Part shown: one piece after another, positions 1,528 through 34,807 of the stretch
Position numbering within the stretch: position 1 is the stretch's first letter
Layout: each line of letters starts with the position of its first letter
Sequence record: SRR31156797_7933
Length of the DNA: 59,219 nt
Direction: 5' to 3' (one strand)
The notes under the pieces: generated by a model
What the model was told of the DNA's origin: nothing
Seen by the model: only the letters and a program-made list of their open reading frames with translations
Databases searched by the model: none
Made by a program: the position numbers and the translations under genes

Positions 1528-2793
1528 ATGCCGTCTATAGTTTTAATGGGAGCCATGCTGGTTCTGGGTGTACCACTGGTATTTGCGATTATCCTGGCGA
1601 TGTCCTTTTACATTTCCAACACGCCGATCTCAATAAGCTTAGTTGCTCAACGTATCTTCAGTGGCTTGGATTCATTTTCAATACTTGCTGTTCCATTGTT
1701 TGTTTTAGCCGGTGAGTTGATGAACAAGAGCGGGATTACCAGCCGCATCATCGATTTCGCTAATGCACTTGTCGGGCATTTTCGCGGTGGTCTAGCACAA
1801 GTTAACGTTTGGTCATCTGTCATGTTCGCAGGAATTTCAGGTTCCGCAGTCGCTGATACATCAGCTCTTGGTCGAGTCTTTATTCCGCAGATGGAAAAAG
1901 AGGGCTATAGCAAAGAATTTTCATCGGCACTGACTGCCGCCTCTTCAGTTATCGGTCCTATGATTCCGCCCAGTATCCCTGTCATTATTTATGCTTTGAT
2001 CGCGACAGGCGTTTCTGTACCCGCTCTTTTCTTAGCAGGTATTGTTCCGGGTATTCTTTCAGCGATTGCGCTCTCTATTTTTGTTTATTACTACGCCACC
2101 AAACATAACATTCGTAGTACTGTTGAACGTCAAAGCCGACGTAAAGCATTAGTTAAGGCATTTATCCCTTTAACGATGCCCATTTTCATCCTGGGTTCTA
2201 TTTTGCTTGGGATTGTTACACCAACGGAAGCGGCTGCCTTTGCTGCGTTTTATGCTCTTACTGTAGGTATGTTCTTCTACAAGACGCTGAAGATTAGCGA
2301 TTTACCAGAAGTGTTCATGCGCTCGATGCGTGACTCTTCAATCGTTTTGATTCTGATCGCGGTCATCTCTGTAGCAAACTGGCTTTTGACTTTCTCTCGT
2401 GTTCCGCAATACATCAGTCAGCAGGTTCTGAGCTCAATTAGTGACCCAATGGTCTTTTTGATCATGGTAAACGTCATTCTGCTAATTGTCGGGCTGTTCC
2501 TTGAAGGCATTGCAGCCATGCTGATTCTGGTTCCGATTTTCCATCCAATCGCTATGAGCTTTGGTATTGACCCTGTTCATTTTGGCATTGTGGTGATCTT
2601 CAATCTGATGATCGGATTAATTACACCACCAATGGGAATCTGTCTGTTTGTTGCCAACACCATATCCAATGTCGGAATCTCTGCGATTTCGAAACAGGTT
2701 ATCCCTCTATTTTTACTTGAAGTTCTAGTTTTGATGTTCATTACATTTGTGCCTCAAAGCGTTCTGTTTTTGCCCACCATTTTTGGTTACTAG
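1528..2793 (+). CDS. dctM: TRAP transporter large permease DctM
   Basis: Motifs LAVPLFVLAGELM, SGSAVAD, IPPSIP, TPTEAAA and GLITPPMG. Confidence 0.95.
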   Translation: MPSIVLMGAMLVLGVPLVFAIILAMSFYISNTPISISLVAQRIFSGLDSFSILAVPLFVLAGELMNKSGITSRIIDFANALVGHFRGGLAQVNVWSSVMFAGISGSAVADTSALGRVFIPQMEKEGYSKEFSSALTAASSVIGPMIPPSIPVIIYALIATGVSVPALFLAGIVPGILSAIALSIFVYYYATKHNIRSTVERQSRRKALVKAFIPLTMPIFILGSILLGIVTPTEAAAFAAFYALTVGMFFYKTLKISDLPEVFMRSMRDSSIVLILIAVISVANWLLTFSRVPQYISQQVLSSISDPMVFLIMVNVILLIVGLFLEGIAAMLILVPIFHPIAMSFGIDPVHFGIVVIFNLMIGLITPPMGICLFVANTISNVGISAISKQVIPLFLLEVLVLMFITFVPQSVLFLPTIFGY

Positions 2794-2832
2794 TGGGGTA
2801 TCACCACGCTTCTAATCGACAAGGATGAATTT

Positions 2833-4656
2833 ATGAAGTATTCAATTGCGACTGTCTGTTTATCGGGCACTCTAGAGCAAAAAATGCATGCGGCCGCCAA
2901 AGCTGGTTTCCATGCTATAGAGATTTTTGAAAACGATTTGACTCAATACCGAGGTTCGGCAAGCGATGTAAAACGTATTGCTGACAGTCTTGGGTTGGAA
3001 ATTTTAGTGCTGCAACCATTCCGTGATATGGAAGGCCTACCGAGTCTTCTTCGCGATAAAAAGTACCGAATGATGGAGCGAAAAATCGAGTTGGCTCATC
3101 AGCTTGGTACTGATCGTTTGATGATGTGTAGCAGTGTTCATCCTTTGGCTTCCGCGGACAAAAATCGTTGTGCTGAAGACCTGTTTGCGTTAGCTGAATT
3201 AGCTAAACGTGAAGGAATGAAGTTAGGTTATGAAGCGTTGGCATGGGGCAGACATATCGCGGACTATGACGATGCATGGGATCTTGTAAAGCGTGTAGAC
3301 CATCCTAACCTTGGCGTTGTGTTGGATACTTTCCACATGTTTGCCCGCGGCAATACATTAGATACCCTGAAGAAAGACATTCCGGTAGAAAAAATCGCAC
3401 TTGTTCAGGTAGCTGACGCGCCAAAAATGCAGATGGATATTCTGCAATATAGTCGCCACTATCGTTGCTTCCCGGGGCAGGGCGATTTCCCTGTTATCGA
3501 CTTTGTTCAGGTGTTGAAAGACAAAGGCTTTGATGACTACCTGTCACACGAAGTGTTTAATGATGAGTTTCGCTCTTCATCGCCGATTGAAAAAGCCATT
3601 GATGGTATTCGATCGCTCAAGTGGCTCGAAGATCAGACGAATGATAATTTCGAAGCTCCTGAGATCAGTGATGTCAGCTTTGTGGAGTTTGCTGTTAAAG
3701 AGCGGGAAAACAACCCGTTTACGGACGTTATTGAATCTTTGGGTTTTAAGAAGACTCATTGCCACAAGAGTAAAAACGTCGATTTGTATCAGTTGGGCGA
3801 TATTAACTTCATCTTCAACTATGAGAAAAACAGTAACGCCCGAAGCTATCTGGAAGGGCATGGCGAATCGGTTTGCGCGCTTGGTGTTTTAGCAAAGGAT
3901 TCTGGTCGCCTAGTCGAGCTGGCGAAGCGTTACAATAGCCCAACCATTTACCAGAGTCGCAAAGAGAATGAGCTGGATATTCCGACACTAAGAAGTACAG
4001 GCGGTATGCTCATTCACTTGCTGGACGACAATCAGGCCCAGAAATTTTACGAAGTTGACTTTGAACCTGTAGCAGGCGTTTCAGCCTATAATGAAAACCT
4101 AATGGGTATCGATCATATGGGGCAGGTGGTCTCACCTGAAATGCTGTTGTCTAACTTGTTCTTTTATAAGTCTATTTTTGGCTTTGTACCAGAAGAAAGT
4201 TATGACTTGCCAGATATCAATGGTTTGATTACTAGCCGTACGATCACCAGTCCAAACGGAAACATCAAGATAGCGTTGAACACCACGAGTGCGAAGCAAA
4301 CGTCAGCGCAACGATTCCTGAATGATTCAAACGGAGCGAGCATTAATCAAATTGCGATTCGGTGCCATGATATTTTTGTTGCGGTTAAAGATTTGTCGCC
4401 AATATATCAGCTTAAAATTCCCAATAACTACTATCTGGACATTCAGGCTCAGTACGACTTGTCCGATGAATTCATTAACAAGCTGAAAGAGAACAACATC
4501 CTTTATACAGAAGATGATACCGGAAGCTTTATGCACTTCTATACTAAGGAAATTAATGGTCTGTTTTTTGAAGTGCTACAACGTGTCGGTAGCTATAAGA
4601 AATATGGTGAAACTAACGCGTTTATTCGTTTAGCCGCGCAATCCTATCGTGGTTGA
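2833..4656 (+). CDS. 3-dehydroshikimate dehydratase, QuiC/QsuB type (sugar-phosphate isomerase TIM barrel fused to HPPD-like domain)
   Basis: N-terminal SIATVCLSGTL, YEALAWG, DTFH, RCFPGQG, EVFNDEFR; C-terminal HPPD-like IDH...FFEVLQR..YG; adjacent to aroQ and an SDH-family gene. Confidence 0.85.
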   Translation: MKYSIATVCLSGTLEQKMHAAAKAGFHAIEIFENDLTQYRGSASDVKRIADSLGLEILVLQPFRDMEGLPSLLRDKKYRMMERKIELAHQLGTDRLMMCSSVHPLASADKNRCAEDLFALAELAKREGMKLGYEALAWGRHIADYDDAWDLVKRVDHPNLGVVLDTFHMFARGNTLDTLKKDIPVEKIALVQVADAPKMQMDILQYSRHYRCFPGQGDFPVIDFVQVLKDKGFDDYLSHEVFNDEFRSSSPIEKAIDGIRSLKWLEDQTNDNFEAPEISDVSFVEFAVKERENNPFTDVIESLGFKKTHCHKSKNVDLYQLGDINFIFNYEKNSNARSYLEGHGESVCALGVLAKDSGRLVELAKRYNSPTIYQSRKENELDIPTLRSTGGMLIHLLDDNQAQKFYEVDFEPVAGVSAYNENLMGIDHMGQVVSPEMLLSNLFFYKSIFGFVPEESYDLPDINGLITSRTITSPNGNIKIALNTTSAKQTSAQRFLNDSNGASINQIAIRCHDIFVAVKDLSPIYQLKIPNNYYLDIQAQYDLSDEFINKLKENNILYTEDDTGSFMHFYTKEINGLFFEVLQRVGSYKKYGETNAFIRLAAQSYRG

Positions 4657-30469: not shown

Positions 30470-30498
30470 AAAAAAGGAGCGCTAGCTCCTTTTTTTTA
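30470..30498 (+). terminator. Intrinsic terminator after ycfH
   Basis: aaaaaaggagc-gcta-gctccttttttt. Confidence 0.8.
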
Positions 30499-30772
30499 TG
30501 TCTATAGCACGAAATTTACGTCTTTAGCTAGTTGTTAACTAAATCTGTTGATTTTGAGGGTTGAGTTTTGTCTAAAGTTATTATGTTACAAAAAATAACA
30601 AGCAACCTTATTTTATTTACTGGGTAAAATTAAGATTTATTCTTGAAAATATCTTTTAATACAATGATTTAATGCTGATGTAATCCATTGCTCACGCTGT
30701 GCTGTACTGTGATCTGTCTATTACTTTGAAACTAAACTCTGACATCTTCTAGAAACCGGTATCATCAACAAG

Positions 30773-30797
30773 ATATATTTAGAGCCGGAAAATATAT
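30773..30797 (+). promoter_or_regulatory. Mlc/NagC-type operator upstream of the PTS paralogue
   Basis: atataTTT-agagccgga-AAAtatat: TTT-N9-AAA in an AT-rich palindrome. An equivalent site sits at the same position before ptsG. Confidence 0.6.
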
Positions 30798-30819
30798 TGA
30801 TTTTGGTCTATGTAGTTTC

Positions 30820-30895
30820 TATTGAAGTTGGCACTAAGGCTACGGGGGTGTGCCGCCGACTTCGAATATTCTAAAAATTTAATCAGGAGCATAAA
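30820..30895 (+). ncRNA. Putative structured 5' leader element, copy A
   Basis: gaagttggc/gccgacttc outer stem, 5-nt bulge, GGC/GCC inner stem and an 11-nt UACGGGGGUGU loop; homologous to 33302-33375. Confidence 0.55.
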
Positions 30896-30898
30896 CTA

Positions 30899-32518
30899 AT
30901 GAAAGCTTTCTTTAGCAAACTTTCACAGTCCATTATGTTACCCATCGCATTGCTGCCGGCTGCGGGTATCATGTTGGGTATCGGGGGGAGTTTTACAAAC
31001 CCTACAATGATCGAAGCATACAACATCAGTATTCTTCAAAACGGAAGCCTATTAAACAACTTCCTTCAAGTAATGACAGCTGCAGGTGACATCGTATTTG
31101 CAAACCTTCCTGTAATGTTTGCTCTAGCAATCGCTGTTGGTTTTGCACGTGCTGAAAAAGGTGCTGCTGCACTTGCTGCATTGATCTCTTACCTAGTAAT
31201 GAACGTTGCTATCGCTAAAACTTTAGCGGTTACAGGTATGATTAATGTTGATTCGCACACTGTTGTCCTAATGGGTAGTGAATACGCTGGTATCTTGTCT
31301 AACTCTTTAGGTATCACAAACACTTTAAGTATGGGTGTATTCGGTGGTTTGATTGCGGGTGCTTTCACTGTTGTTCTTCACAACAAATACCATGATGCAA
31401 AACTACCAGATTACTTAGGCTTCTTTGGTGGCGCGCGTTTCGTTCCTATCATCAGTGCATTCGCTGCATTGTTCTACGGTATCGTTCTGACTTTCATCTG
31501 GCCATTCTTTGGTGCTGCATTCGGCGCTATCGGTGCTGCTCTTGGTGAAATGACTGCATCTGGTCACGGTTACATTGCATCTCTGATCTTCGGTATCATT
31601 GAACGTTCTCTAATCCCTGTTGGTCTTCACCACGTATTCTATCTTCCACTATGGCAGACAGAGATCGGTGCAACTGCAGAAATTGCTGGTGAACTTGTGA
31701 AGGGAACACAAAACATCTTCTTCGCTTCTCTAGCATCAGGTGACTTCTCTCAATTCACATCAACTAACTTCATGACAGGTAAATTCCCATTCATGATGTT
31801 TGGTCTTCCAGCTGCAGCGTACGCTATGTACTCTCTAGCAGATGCTGAAAACAAGAAAGCGGCGGGTGGTCTACTATTCTCTGTTGCTCTAACTGCGTTC
31901 CTAACTGGTATCACAGAGCCAATCGAGTTTACATTCCTATTCCTAGCTCCAGCGCTTTACTACGCGATTCACGTTCCTCTAGCAGGCCTATCATTCATGT
32001 TGATGGATATGCTGAACGTTAAAGTTGGTATGACATTCAGTGGCGGTTTCATCGACTTCTCACTATTCGGTGTTCTACCTGGCGTAACGGGTACTGCAAA
32101 CAATTGGTACTTCATCCCACTAGTGGGTATTGCATACGCGTTCATCTACTTCTTTGTATTCCGTTGGTTTATCGTTAAGTTCGACGTTAAAACTCCTGGT
32201 CGTAAAGGTAGCGCAGTAGCAGTAGTATCTAAGAAAGATTACCACGCAGCTAAAGGCGGCGCGGCAGGCGACAACCAAAAAGCAAAAGACATGATCGAAG
32301 CTCTAGGTGGCGCTGAAAACATCGTTGACGTTGATGCATGTATCACTCGTCTACGCATCACTGTTAAAGATGGCGCTCAAGTGAAAGGCAATGATCACTG
32401 GACTCAAGAGCTAGGTGCTCGTGGTCTTGTGAAAGTTGGTGACACTGGCATCCAAGCTATCTACGGTGCGGAAGCTGCTGGTTACAAAGCTCAAATTAAC
32501 TCTCTACTTGGTAAGTAA
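30899..32518 (+). CDS. PTS glucose-family EIICB transporter (divergent PtsG/MalX-like paralogue)
   Basis: [42 protein letters not shown], the KTPGR linker and [12 protein letters not shown]. Confidence 0.92.
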   Translation: MKAFFSKLSQSIMLPIALLPAAGIMLGIGGSFTNPTMIEAYNISILQNGSLLNNFLQVMTAAGDIVFANLPVMFALAIAVGFARAEKGAAALAALISYLVMNVAIAKTLAVTGMINVDSHTVVLMGSEYAGILSNSLGITNTLSMGVFGGLIAGAFTVVLHNKYHDAKLPDYLGFFGGARFVPIISAFAALFYGIVLTFIWPFFGAAFGAIGAALGEMTASGHGYIASLIFGIIERSLIPVGLHHVFYLPLWQTEIGATAEIAGELVKGTQNIFFASLASGDFSQFTSTNFMTGKFPFMMFGLPAAAYAMYSLADAENKKAAGGLLFSVALTAFLTGITEPIEFTFLFLAPALYYAIHVPLAGLSFMLMDMLNVKVGMTFSGGFIDFSLFGVLPGVTGTANNWYFIPLVGIAYAFIYFFVFRWFIVKFDVKTPGRKGSAVAVVSKKDYHAAKGGAAGDNQKAKDMIEALGGAENIVDVDACITRLRITVKDGAQVKGNDHWTQELGARGLVKVGDTGIQAIYGAEAAGYKAQINSLLGK

Positions 32519-32964
32519 TGAGTATTGGTGACAAATTCAGAAGAACCGGCGCTTTCGTCATTGATGTGATGATTGCAAAAATGTTCACTCAGGTGGTGTT
32601 GTCGGTTCTCGCTTTACTCGTGACAGGTATTTTTAGCGGTAAAGTGGGTGGTTTATCATTGAACGATGATTTAGCACTGCCCGTTTTACTGATGATAATA
32701 GTCGTTATGCTGTTGGTTTTTATAGGGATATATCTAGGCTTTTGCTCAATCAGCTATAAATTGATTGGTAAGTCACTAGGTAAATATCTGCTGAGAGTTG
32801 ACAGTGGAGCAGAACAAAAGGATTTGTCAGCATTCATTGCTCGTGAAAAGCAGAAAATTGTTCTTTGCATATCAACATTAGGACTTTATGCCGCTTATTC
32901 AGCGATTCAGCTCTATATGTTTGATAAAGAACCTTTGCATGAGTTAAAAGCGAAACAGAATTAA
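32518..32964 (+). CDS. RDD-family-like membrane protein
   Basis: N-terminal RRTGAFVID and GKSLGKYLL match RDD-family patterns; start overlaps the PTS stop (TAATG). Confidence 0.65.
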   Translation: MSIGDKFRRTGAFVIDVMIAKMFTQVVLSVLALLVTGIFSGKVGGLSLNDDLALPVLLMIIVVMLLVFIGIYLGFCSISYKLIGKSLGKYLLRVDSGAEQKDLSAFIAREKQKIVLCISTLGLYAAYSAIQLYMFDKEPLHELKAKQN

Positions 32965-32971
32965 AAATGAT

Positions 32972-33000
32972 AAAAGCCTGCTAATTAAGCAGGCTTTTTT
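32972..33000 (+). terminator. Intrinsic terminator closing the PTS-RDD operon
   Basis: aaaagcctgct-aatta-agcaggctttttt. Confidence 0.85.
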
Positions 33001-33253
33001 ATTACAAATAACAGAATATTAAAAATTTTTTCCCAGAGTTATTTCCGCCAAAACTTTCGTTGTTTTTATGCATTTCCAGAATCTACTGATAAATATCATT
33101 TTTATTAATATGTATGTAACAAAAAATTAAAGTGTTTTTATATCAATAAATTGAAAGTGGCATTTTTGTGTTTTTTTCCATATTAGTCGATTTGTTTTCG
33201 ATTTTCGTGATCTGTAAATATTTATCTGTTACGAAGTTTGAACAGTATCAATA

Positions 33254-33278
33254 ATATATTTTGAGGTCTGAAATATAA
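33254..33278 (+). promoter_or_regulatory. Mlc-type operator upstream of ptsG
   Basis: atataTTT-tgaggtctg-AAAtataa; ptsG is the canonical Mlc target. Confidence 0.65.
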
Positions 33279-33301
33279 TTCCTCTTGTGGTCACATTTCT
33301 A

Positions 33302-33375
33302 TTGGGTGCTAACATTTAGGCTACGGGGGTAAGCCGTTAGAACCCAAATTCTAATAATTTAATCAGGAGCATAAA
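33302..33375 (+). ncRNA. Putative structured 5' leader element, copy B (ptsG)
   Basis: ttgggt-g-ctaac/gttag-a-acccaa outer stem, 5-nt bulge, GGC/GCC inner stem and an 11-nt UACGGGGGUAA loop. Confidence 0.55.
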
Positions 33376-33376
33376 A

Positions 33377-34807
33377 ATGTTTAAAAACGCTTTTGCTAAC
33401 CTGCAAAAAGTAGGTAAGTCTCTGATGCTACCAGTATCAGTACTTCCAGTTGCAGGTATTTTGCTTGGTGTGGGTGCGGCTAACTTTAGCTGGCTTCCAG
33501 AAGTTGTTTCTCACTTAATGGAACAAGCTGGCGGCTCAGTTTTTGGCCAAATGGCACTTCTTTTTGCTGTCGGCGTATCTTTAGGTTTTACTAACAACGA
33601 CGGTGTATCAGGTCTTTCCGCTATTGTTGGCTACGGTATCATGGTAGCAACATTAAGCGTCATGGCTGACATGATGGGTGTTGACCATATAGAAACAGGT
33701 GTTTTAGGTGGTATCCTAGCTGGTGGTGTTGCAGCATGGGCCTTCAACCGATTCTATAAAATTCAACTTCCAGAATATTTAGGTTTCTTCGCTGGTAAGC
33801 GTGCAGTACCAATTATTACTGGTTTCCTATCGATTGGTCTTGGTGTCATTCTTTCTATTATTTGGCCACCAATTGGCGCAGTGATCGCTTCATTCTCTGA
33901 TTGGGCGGCAAACCAGAACCCAGTAACAGCATTCGGTATTTACGGTGTTGTTGAACGTTCTCTAATTCCATTCGGTCTGCACCACATCTGGAACGTACCA
34001 TTCTTCTACGAAGCTGGTACTTGTACGAACAACTCTGGTGAAATTGCTCACGGCATCATGACATGTTTCCTAACCGCTGATGACGCTTCGCGTGCAGCTG
34101 GTAATGGTTTCGGTCAGTTAGCGGGTGGTTACTTGTTCAAGATGTTCGGTCTGCCAGCAGCTGCTATTGCAATTGCACACTCTGCTAAGCCAGAAAACCG
34201 TGCAAAAGTTATGGGTATCATGGCTTCAGCAGCGTTGACATCATTCCTAACCGGTATTACAGAACCAATTGAGTTCTCGTTCCTATTTATCGCACCAATC
34301 CTATACGGTATCCACGCGGTACTAGCTGGTGTTGCATACATGCTAACGAACTCTCTAGGTGTTGTTCACGGTCATACTTTCTCTAACGGTTTCATTGACT
34401 TCGTTGTTCAATCTCCGCGTGCAGAAAACATGATTCTACTGGTTGGCCTAGGTATCGCATACGCAGTGCTTTACTACGTAGTGTTCACTTTCGTTATCCG
34501 CGCTATGGACATTAAGACTCCTGGTCGTGAAGATGAAGAAGAAGGCGCTGTAGTGGCTTCTGGTAACGAAATGGCTGGTGAACTGGTTGCAGCATTCGGT
34601 GGTAAAGAAAACATCACTAACTTAGACGCATGTATCACTCGTCTACGTGTATCGGTTGCGGATACTGAAGTTGTTGACCAGGACAAACTGAAGAAACTTG
34701 GGGCTGCTGGTGTAGTCGTTGTTTCTGGTGGTGTTCAGGCTATTTTCGGTACTAAATCTGACAACCTTAAAACAGATATGGATGAGTGGATCCGTAACCA
34801 CGGCTAA
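33377..34807 (+). CDS. ptsG: PTS glucose transporter subunit IIBC
   Basis: [25 protein letters not shown]-terminus, GITEPIEF and [11 protein letters not shown]. Confidence 0.97.

Follow-up and report, generated by a model that had tools for sequence, protein, structure and literature searches.

A small RNA (sRNA) known to act on ptsG mRNA is VcdR of Vibrio cholerae, a 306-nt, CRP-repressed and Hfq-dependent RNA that also encodes a 29-aa protein and that represses ptsG, treB, nagE and ptsHI (PMC8672173). According to the text of that article (Venkat et al. 2021), VcdR works via four consecutive Cs, residues 229-232: deletion of the CCCC abolishes ptsG repression, a change of two Cs to two Gs in VcdR is rescued by a change of two Gs to two Cs in each target mRNA, ptsG included, and the pairing is located at 'translation initiation sites'. 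Neither 'hairpin' nor 'stem-loop' occurs in this text, and 'loop' appears only in two reference titles. TarA is presented in reviews simply as complementary to the ptsG 5' region and as activated by the V. cholerae virulence regulator ToxT. In this study we analysed a DNA stretch of 59,219 nt from sequence record SRR31156797_7933 (the window), in which ptsG and a second gene of the phosphotransferase system (PTS), hereafter the paralogue, are each preceded by a leader containing a hairpin with five consecutive Gs (G5) at its apex. We propose that this hairpin most likely displays the VcdR pairing site and that the whole module was reused for the second transporter, a reading to which we give a probability of about 0.58.

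The two hairpins, copy A before the paralogue and copy B before ptsG, are located as follows:
30824..30863, + strand: copy A hairpin (fold; match to the covariance model R1 described below, 61.4 bits; covariation; top predicted VcdR site)
33302..33347, + strand: copy B hairpin (fold; R1 match, 70.6 bits; top predicted VcdR site)

In copy A, the outer stem (30824-30832/30855-30863) is followed by the 5' bulge ACUAA (30833-30837), the inner stem GGC (30838-30840)/GCC (30852-30854) and a loop (30841-30851) with G5 at 30844-30848. Copy B is built in the same way, with an outer stem at 33302-33313/33336-33347, the 5' bulge AUUUA (33314-33318), an inner stem GGC (33319-33321)/GCC (33333-33335), a loop at 33322-33332 and G5 at 33325-33329. 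An earlier note on this DNA, made from the letters alone, had described these coordinates and a leader layout common to both copies, and all of it matches the sequence; the ggcac/gtgcc fold that it mentioned as an alternative for copy A is not kept in other lineages. Each hairpin is the minimum-free-energy fold (-21.0 kcal/mol and z -3.5 for copy A; -18.7 kcal/mol and z -3.0 for copy B), and 0 of 200 shuffles were as good in either case. When folded thermodynamically, the hairpins gain 2-3 pairs at the apex (U.G or U-A, A-U, C-G); the first four Gs are then predicted to form a tetraloop, with a probability of being unpaired of 0.82-1.0, and the fifth G to pair with C. Rfam 15 gave no match in the window at the gathering score, and none of the 16 matches obtained with E up to 10 overlapped either leader.

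We then asked how far the hairpin extends beyond the window. An exact scan for the loop and inner stem in 185,579 species genomes returned at least 120 loci. Among the matches listed, 73 of 120 loci are Vibrio leaders of this type (49 distinct 60-nt strings), 72 of them before a ptsG-like open reading frame (ORF) and one (L035) before a paralogue-like ORF; in the Vibrio ptsG leaders listed, the 5' arm GGGUGCUAAC is nearly invariant and the 3' arm drifts at two mismatch or wobble positions. The covariance model R1, built from 22 sequences, matched 62 of 151 Vibrionaceae genomes, exactly once each. When 20 of the 27 R1 matches scoring below 52 bits were inspected, all 20 proved to be G5 hairpins in leaders (10 before ptsG, one before the paralogue and nine of the Photobacterium type described below), with GAC/GUC or GGC/GCU inner stems and with outer stems of unrelated sequence. 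Four genomes missed by R1 revealed a third architecture, in which GGCAA-GGGGGAUA-UUGCC sits on an AAUUAC/GUAAUU stem and G5 is again the sole run of four or more Gs in the leader. Because R1 is blind to this architecture, even with filters off, a second model (R2) was built on such sequences and matched 15 further genomes. The covariance-model search suggested by the earlier note thus places the hairpin in 77 of the 151 Vibrionaceae genomes. R1 applied to 151 genomes across the order matched six, all already in the Vibrionaceae sample, and no other family.

Covariation was quantified on alignment A3, which holds 104 R1 matches from 100 sources in 73 distinct rows and leaves out 6 of the 49 distinct Vibrio strings. 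Pairing is possible in 93.9% of cells and falls to 32-50% once the partner is displaced by 1-3 columns, figures that lean towards the structure as A3 was fitted to the model. Nine of the 16 pairs vary on both sides, in 60 cells, and the covariation score is 0.262 versus 0.165 for shuffled alignments (0 of 500 shuffles reach 0.262, a count that is no probability, the sequences being related). G.U cells are numerous, in agreement with a + strand RNA. The inner stem occurs as GGC/GCC, GAC/GUC or GCU/AGC, and outer stems are wholly different between lineages; all 73 distinct sequences, without exception, have the five Gs (loop columns 29-31, 33 and 34), and the C before and the U after them are each kept in 72 of 73. 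The covariation that the earlier note had seen within one genome therefore holds over some 100 instances and, with the invariance of G5, bears out its claim of a structure kept by selection: across the family, the hairpin is a genuine leader RNA structure under selection. No described stem-loop of a Vibrio ptsG leader was found in the literature, on which figures and supplements may bear.

To compare this element with VcdR, vcdRP was located in a V. cholerae genome (G001) by walking from carB, ∼120 kb away. The locus has an upstream CRP box, a 29-codon ORF, a terminator, and CCCC at nt 229-232 of a unit of ∼306 nt; the third codon of the ORF, AAA, is the one changed to TAA in PMC8672173. The reported position of vcdRP between vc2278 and vc2279 (PMC12310071) fits the distance from carB, and the locus agrees with the description given in the text of both papers. 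By blastn, vcdRP was matched in 92 of the 151 Vibrionaceae genomes. Its seed, UGUUCACCCC, is present in all 30 vcdRP loci inspected, one of which has an additional A. All 11 diverged lineages have it too, with 4-7 Cs in the run. A vcdRP with the same seed exists in the closest relative having the tandem paralogue-ptsG locus (G003), and the source organism presumably has VcdR as well; vcdRP has no match inside the window and none in Rfam. Of the 151 genomes, 71 gave both hairpin and vcdRP, 6 gave the hairpin alone, 21 gave vcdRP alone and 53 gave neither. These counts are descriptive, since both detectors miss cases and the genomes are related, so that the co-occurrence is no independent test; at least one of the 21 vcdRP-only genomes (G041, locus L349) has a hairpin overlooked by the models. 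The seed lies in a predicted single-stranded linker between hairpins of VcdR, so the contact would be of linear seed to loop, and not the 'loop-loop' pairing that had been suggested.

Whole leaders paired against ∼100 nt of sRNA gave unphysical end-to-end duplexes, and we used instead a windowed duplex scan of a 24-nt seed segment that includes the opening energy of the mRNA. The best predicted sites were:
V. cholerae nagE: G-rich Shine-Dalgarno sequence (SD), -11.7 kcal/mol (next site, -7.9)
V. cholerae ptsH: G-rich SD, -10.4 kcal/mol (next, -5.4)
V. cholerae treB: G-rich SD, -9.7 kcal/mol (next, -4.5)
V. cholerae ptsG: loop, -54..-47, -7.6 kcal/mol (next, -5.8 at the SD, without CCCC)
Window copy A: loop, -56..-48 from AUG, -10.2 kcal/mol (next, -2.9)
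Window copy B: loop, -53..-46 from AUG, -7.9 kcal/mol (next, -2.1)

Both window leaders are thus predicted to offer what marks a VcdR target, an accessible G-run complementary to the CCCC seed, and of 38 cognate sRNA/leader pairs, 35 have their raw duplex optimum on the loop. The idea of VcdR as the partner, raised in the earlier note, is strengthened by the location of vcdRP, by the conservation of its C-run seed, and by the loop ranking first once accessibility is counted, both in the window leaders and in ptsG of V. cholerae. In V. cholerae the SDs of nagE, ptsH and treB are GGGGG, GGGG and GGGUGG respectively, and that of ptsG is AGGAG; G-runs of three or more occur in the probable ptsG leader only in the hairpin 5' arm and in the loop. 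As the G-run is the SD in nagE, ptsH and treB and the ptsG SD has no such run, the G-run of ptsG would be placed on the hairpin, ∼50 nt upstream. A separate observation concerns the ptsG 5' arm: its segment GGGUGCUAACA (window 33304-33314), nearly invariant in Vibrio, complements the VcdR seed with a 2-nt bulge, in a duplex of -9.8 kcal/mol raw that is costly to open. Paralogue leaders have lost GGGUGCUAACA. In ptsG, this segment might offer a second way of pairing, one that opens the structure, or act as a site for another factor.

The second part of our proposal is the reuse of the ptsG control region. The remaining elements of the two leaders, and the two genes, are:
30772..30798, + strand: copy A operator, AT-rich palindromic TTT-N9-AAA, Mlc/NagC type by resemblance (sequence)
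30816..30824, + strand: copy A UUUCUAUUG, directly 5' of the hairpin (exact 9-mer common to 33296-33304)
30864..30898, + strand: copy A AU-rich linker and SD (AGGAG 30885-30889) (sequence; almost the same as copy B)
30899..32518, + strand: paralogue, glucose-family PTS EIICB, 539 aa (Pfam PTS_EIIC and PTS_EIIB)
33237..33279, + strand: copy B CRP-like box (33237-33252), TTT-N9-AAA operator (33253-33279) and -10 TATAAT (33274-33279) (sequence)
33296..33304, + strand: copy B UUUCUAUUG (sequence and blastn)
33348..33376, + strand: copy B AU-rich linker and SD (AGGAG 33365-33369) (sequence)
33377..34807, + strand: ptsG, glucose PTS EIICB, 476 aa (NCBIfam equivalog NF008301, 846.9 bits versus a cut-off of 647)

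The copy A operator has TTT at 30778-30780, N9, and AAA at 30790-30792; it is centred at 30785, with the ATG (30899) 114 nt further on, and a -10-like TATATT (30793-30798) is contained in its right half. The copy B operator is centred at 33266, 111 nt before the ATG at 33377. Judged from these promoters, transcription probably starts near 30805 in copy A and near 33286-33287 in copy B, that is, upstream of the hairpins. Both copies have the operator palindrome, as do orthologues, and the layout is kept in other Vibrio ptsG promoters. At the position of UUUCUAUUG orthologues have a related UUUUC(A/U); in the minimum-free-energy fold of copy A, UUUCUAUUG pairs with the SD. The CRP-like box before ptsG (33237-33252) is well formed, and that before the paralogue (30754-30769) has a left half that is degenerate by inspection; the two copies may thus be unequal in cAMP-CRP dependence. 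Both copies share the linker and SD, ATTCTAA[A/T]AATTTAATCAGGAGCATAAA. Comparison of the two intergenic regions by blastn gave a single significant match, 30837-30895 versus 33318-33375 (78% over 63 columns, E 2e-10), which spans the part from loop to SD, and short colinear matches at the operator, at UUUCUAUUG and at a GTGATCTGT box. This pattern indicates that the copies are old and do not result from a fresh duplication.

The two proteins are 37% identical, in line with the earlier description of them as 'very divergent', and the paralogue stays under every NCBIfam cut-off (top match TIGR02002, 518 bits versus 591.8). Orthologues of it occur in a limited number of Vibrio and Photobacterium genomes and in a single Endozoicomonas-like one (16 loci, L121-L136). 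Beyond these Vibrionaceae-like genomes, the nearest relatives come from metagenome-assembled genomes (MAGs) of Leptotrichiaceae (65%) and Culicoidibacterales (63%), followed by Clostridia and Bacilli at 45-51% identity (loci within L138-L200). Sequence relationships therefore suggest that the paralogue was acquired horizontally and then captured the host ptsG control region. Six of the 16 orthologue loci (L121-L126) have a ptsG-type leader directly upstream, with outer stems that are quite different and still pair and, in L126, an inner stem changed to GCU/AGC; a complete ptsG front end also precedes the paralogue in a further genome (L233). The claim that the ptsG control module as a whole, from operator and -10 through leader and hairpin to SD, stands before a second, unrelated-looking PTS gene is thus upheld, both in the window and in further lineages. 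The hairpin lies ∼245 nt upstream of the paralogue in five Photobacterium loci, and in four other lineages and the Endozoicomonas-like genome the paralogue leader is unrelated. Two of these four lineages (L129 and L135) have UAGGGGU, a perfect 7-nt seed match, between SD and AUG, and a third (L127) has GGGG there, which points to convergence.

The Photobacterium-type loci (L235, L236, L240, L241, L245-L248 and L250; L128, L130-L132 and L134, ∼2750-3000) have the hairpin leader and SD followed by ATGTTCACTAAC, which by its sequence looks like a remnant of the ptsG start. Between ATGTTCACTAAC and the paralogue's own SD they have ∼170 nt of extra, palindrome-bearing leader, which may be a leader peptide, a second regulatory element or a scar.

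In the mechanism we favour, the ptsG 5' untranslated region of Vibrionaceae would carry an element in which an outer stem of 9-12 bp leads, past an A/U-rich 5' bulge of 4-6 nt, to a short inner stem with a GGGGG apex. This hairpin would present its G-run to the C-rich seed UGUUCACCCC, predicted to be single-stranded, of VcdR, which forms the RNA half of VcdRP, a dual-function RNA repressed by CRP and dependent on Hfq. According to the pairing and promoter models, VcdR would bind the loop and the transcription start site would lie upstream of the hairpin. Pairing would lower sugar uptake, expression being reduced via Hfq/RNase E decay or blocked ribosome loading. A Firmicute-like EIICB gene, with a 148-aa partner, would have acquired the ptsG operator, -10, leader, hairpin, linker and SD; as the paralogue has the entire ptsG front end, the second transporter would be switched by the same inputs.

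Several observations weigh against this proposal. Six hairpin genomes gave no vcdRP blastn match, and 21 vcdRP genomes gave no match to the models. The loop lies 46-56 nt upstream of the AUG, as against the published 'translation initiation sites' (PMC8672173). In 3 of the 38 pairs, V. cholerae included, the raw duplex optimum is on the 5' arm GGGUGCUAACA, and the published G-to-C rescue could therefore map to the arm and not to the loop. With a 38-nt sRNA segment, the raw best site on V. cholerae ptsG is at -10..+6 without CCCC (-11.9, versus -10.9 for the loop). The energies are modest: compared with shuffled seeds, copy A reached -15.1 versus -9.7 ± 2.1 (3 of 200 shuffles as good), and copy B, a weak case, -12.4 versus -9.5 ± 2.3 (21 of 200). 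The position of the transcription start site upstream of the hairpin comes from promoter geometry read by eye. Finally, an invariant C-G5-U exceeds the need of a four-C seed.

Two other readings of the loop deserve mention. It could be a docking site for a different trans factor, either another C-rich sRNA or a protein reading C-GGGGG-U on the bulged stem: seven invariant positions (C, five Gs and U) are more than four Cs require, and the near-invariant ptsG 5' arm in Vibrio, facing a drifting 3' arm, hints at more sequence-specific contacts. When five genomes were scanned for the loop complement ACCCCCGT, however, 10-27 matches were obtained per strand per genome and no conserved sRNA turned up. 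In V. cholerae there were 26 ACCCCCGT matches, one being the ptsG leader; 24 of the other 25 were inspected and correspond to long open frames, the tmRNA gene, a palindrome in L283 and one mobile-element hairpin. TarA is, to our knowledge, confined to V. cholerae, hence no explanation for the family-wide conservation, GGA (the CsrA-type core) never occurs in the loop, and no candidate protein emerged; we consider such a factor unlikely. The other reading is that the loop, GGGGGU(G), mimics G-rich SDs and, as a pseudo-SD or ribosome standby site, loads or parks 30S subunits upstream of the real SD. GGGGG or GGGG is the SD of nagE and ptsH in three Vibrio genomes, so such a run works as an SD in the family; the U after G5 is nearly constant, as given above, and the VcdR seed resembles the anti-SD, the core of which is CCUCC. 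Yet the spacing from the loop to the real AUG, ∼50 nt, is far beyond SD range, no start codon suitably spaced after the loop is conserved in the leaders inspected, and the fifth G is predicted to be paired, all of which make a pseudo-SD doubtful. It is compatible with VcdR pairing at the hairpin, as the sRNA may compete with the ribosome for the loop. Combining the two gives a portable 'SD-mimic' module, in which an upstream pseudo-SD would capture 30S for the weakly G-rich ptsG start, the anti-SD-like VcdR seed would compete, and the whole would have moved with the promoter before a horizontally acquired transporter, plugging this gene into glucose control; we regard this scenario as speculative and give it a small chance.

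Readings in which the loop is not recognised fare less well. A purely structural 5' hairpin shielding the mRNA from 5'-end-dependent decay would agree with a position ∼15-20 nt from the probable 5' end and with stems that covary freely, but a stabiliser needs no invariant loop, and G5 is kept in every distinct sequence and across three stem architectures; this is very improbable. A DNA-level inverted repeat (operator) or transcription attenuator, to which an inverted repeat adjoining a regulated promoter could point, is in our opinion almost certainly wrong: the arms vary by compensatory changes and G.U pairs, not tolerable for an operator, there is no T-run 3' of either hairpin, and the terminator scan is silent at 30824-30863 and 33302-33347.

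Three specific candidates were rejected. A CsrA/RsmA binding hairpin is at odds with the loop columns, which are all G in the 73 distinct sequences and lack GGA; an intrinsic terminator or attenuator would have a U-run after its G+C-rich stem, and none follows either hairpin; and, by inspection, an AUG or GUG right after G5, as for a leader peptide, is neither conserved nor spaced for initiation. As a side observation, an intergenic hairpin near a transposase-like fragment in the V. cholerae genome (L269/L285, ∼1210-1290, G001 contig C2) has in its loop ACCCCCGUA, a perfect 9-nt complement of the ptsG loop, which may be chance.

The gene order in the window is holB, tatD-like ycfH, the 539-aa PTS EIICB gene, a 148-aa ORF and ptsG. 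Two more features belong to this locus:
32518..32964, + strand: 148-aa predicted membrane protein, downstream of the paralogue (tblastn; sub-threshold Pfam RDD match only)
32972..32998, no strand assigned: terminator-like palindrome ending the paralogue unit, before the ptsG promoter (terminator scan)

Generic terminator-type Rfam noise also falls at 32972-32998, and a perfect bidirectional terminator-like palindrome is found 3' of ycfH (window 30470-30495). Among 80 loci of the paralogue and its relatives, tblastn found the 148-aa protein in 18, directly after the paralogue in each, and this arrangement is seen in Vibrio, Photobacterium, the Endozoicomonas-like genome and a Leptotrichiaceae MAG. 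The 148-aa protein looks like an unnamed accessory subunit of the paralogue transporter.

Regulation of ptsG by VcdR is already published; no account of the structured motif, of its covariation or of its reuse was found in the text of the literature, figures and supplements aside. If VcdR does pair with the G5 loop, the hairpin would provide the structural reason why ptsG, whose SD has no G-run, can still be caught by a four-C seed. The hairpin defines a family-wide cis-acting RNA motif absent from Rfam, and its compensatory stem changes record selection on the fold. The paralogue would be an example from nature of co-opted regulation, in which a PTS gene of foreign origin took over an entire promoter-leader-sRNA-site cassette. 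The gain is one of mechanistic detail and of a clean test system, and not of a new principle.

How does this locus compare with known systems? The Mlc/CRP-controlled ptsG promoter of E. coli is the comparison model for the promoters. As in E. coli, an AT-rich TTT-N9-AAA covers the -10, and the CRP-like box of copy B is centred, by inspection, 41.5 nt before the probable transcription start site; in contrast, the left half-site of the copy A box is degenerate. sRNA sites far upstream of the SD, in standby or enhancer regions, include those of IstR-1/tisB and of the GcvB targets. Like the hairpin, these place regulation tens of nt upstream of the start codon, a resemblance only. CsrA/RsmA sites have in common with the hairpin a purine-rich apical-loop motif and a downstream GGA in the SD, but differ from it in that GGA is absent from the loop. 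SgrS of Enterobacteriaceae pairs at the ribosome-binding site of ptsG. It is likewise a dual-function sRNA that represses ptsG mRNA and limits sugar uptake, and the SgrS-ptsG pair is listed in PMC4098024, whereas R1 matches, among the 151 genomes of the order, only those of the Vibrionaceae sample. VcdRP is the nearest case. The text of PMC8672173 does not contain the motif, its three architectures, its family-wide spread or the copy before a second transporter, and does not list the paralogue as a target. What is shared with that system is the gene family, the bacterial family, a four-C seed near the 3' end, the need for Hfq and a CRP-repressed sRNA gene (PMC8672173); what differs is that here the G-run stands on a covarying hairpin ∼50 nt upstream of the AUG.

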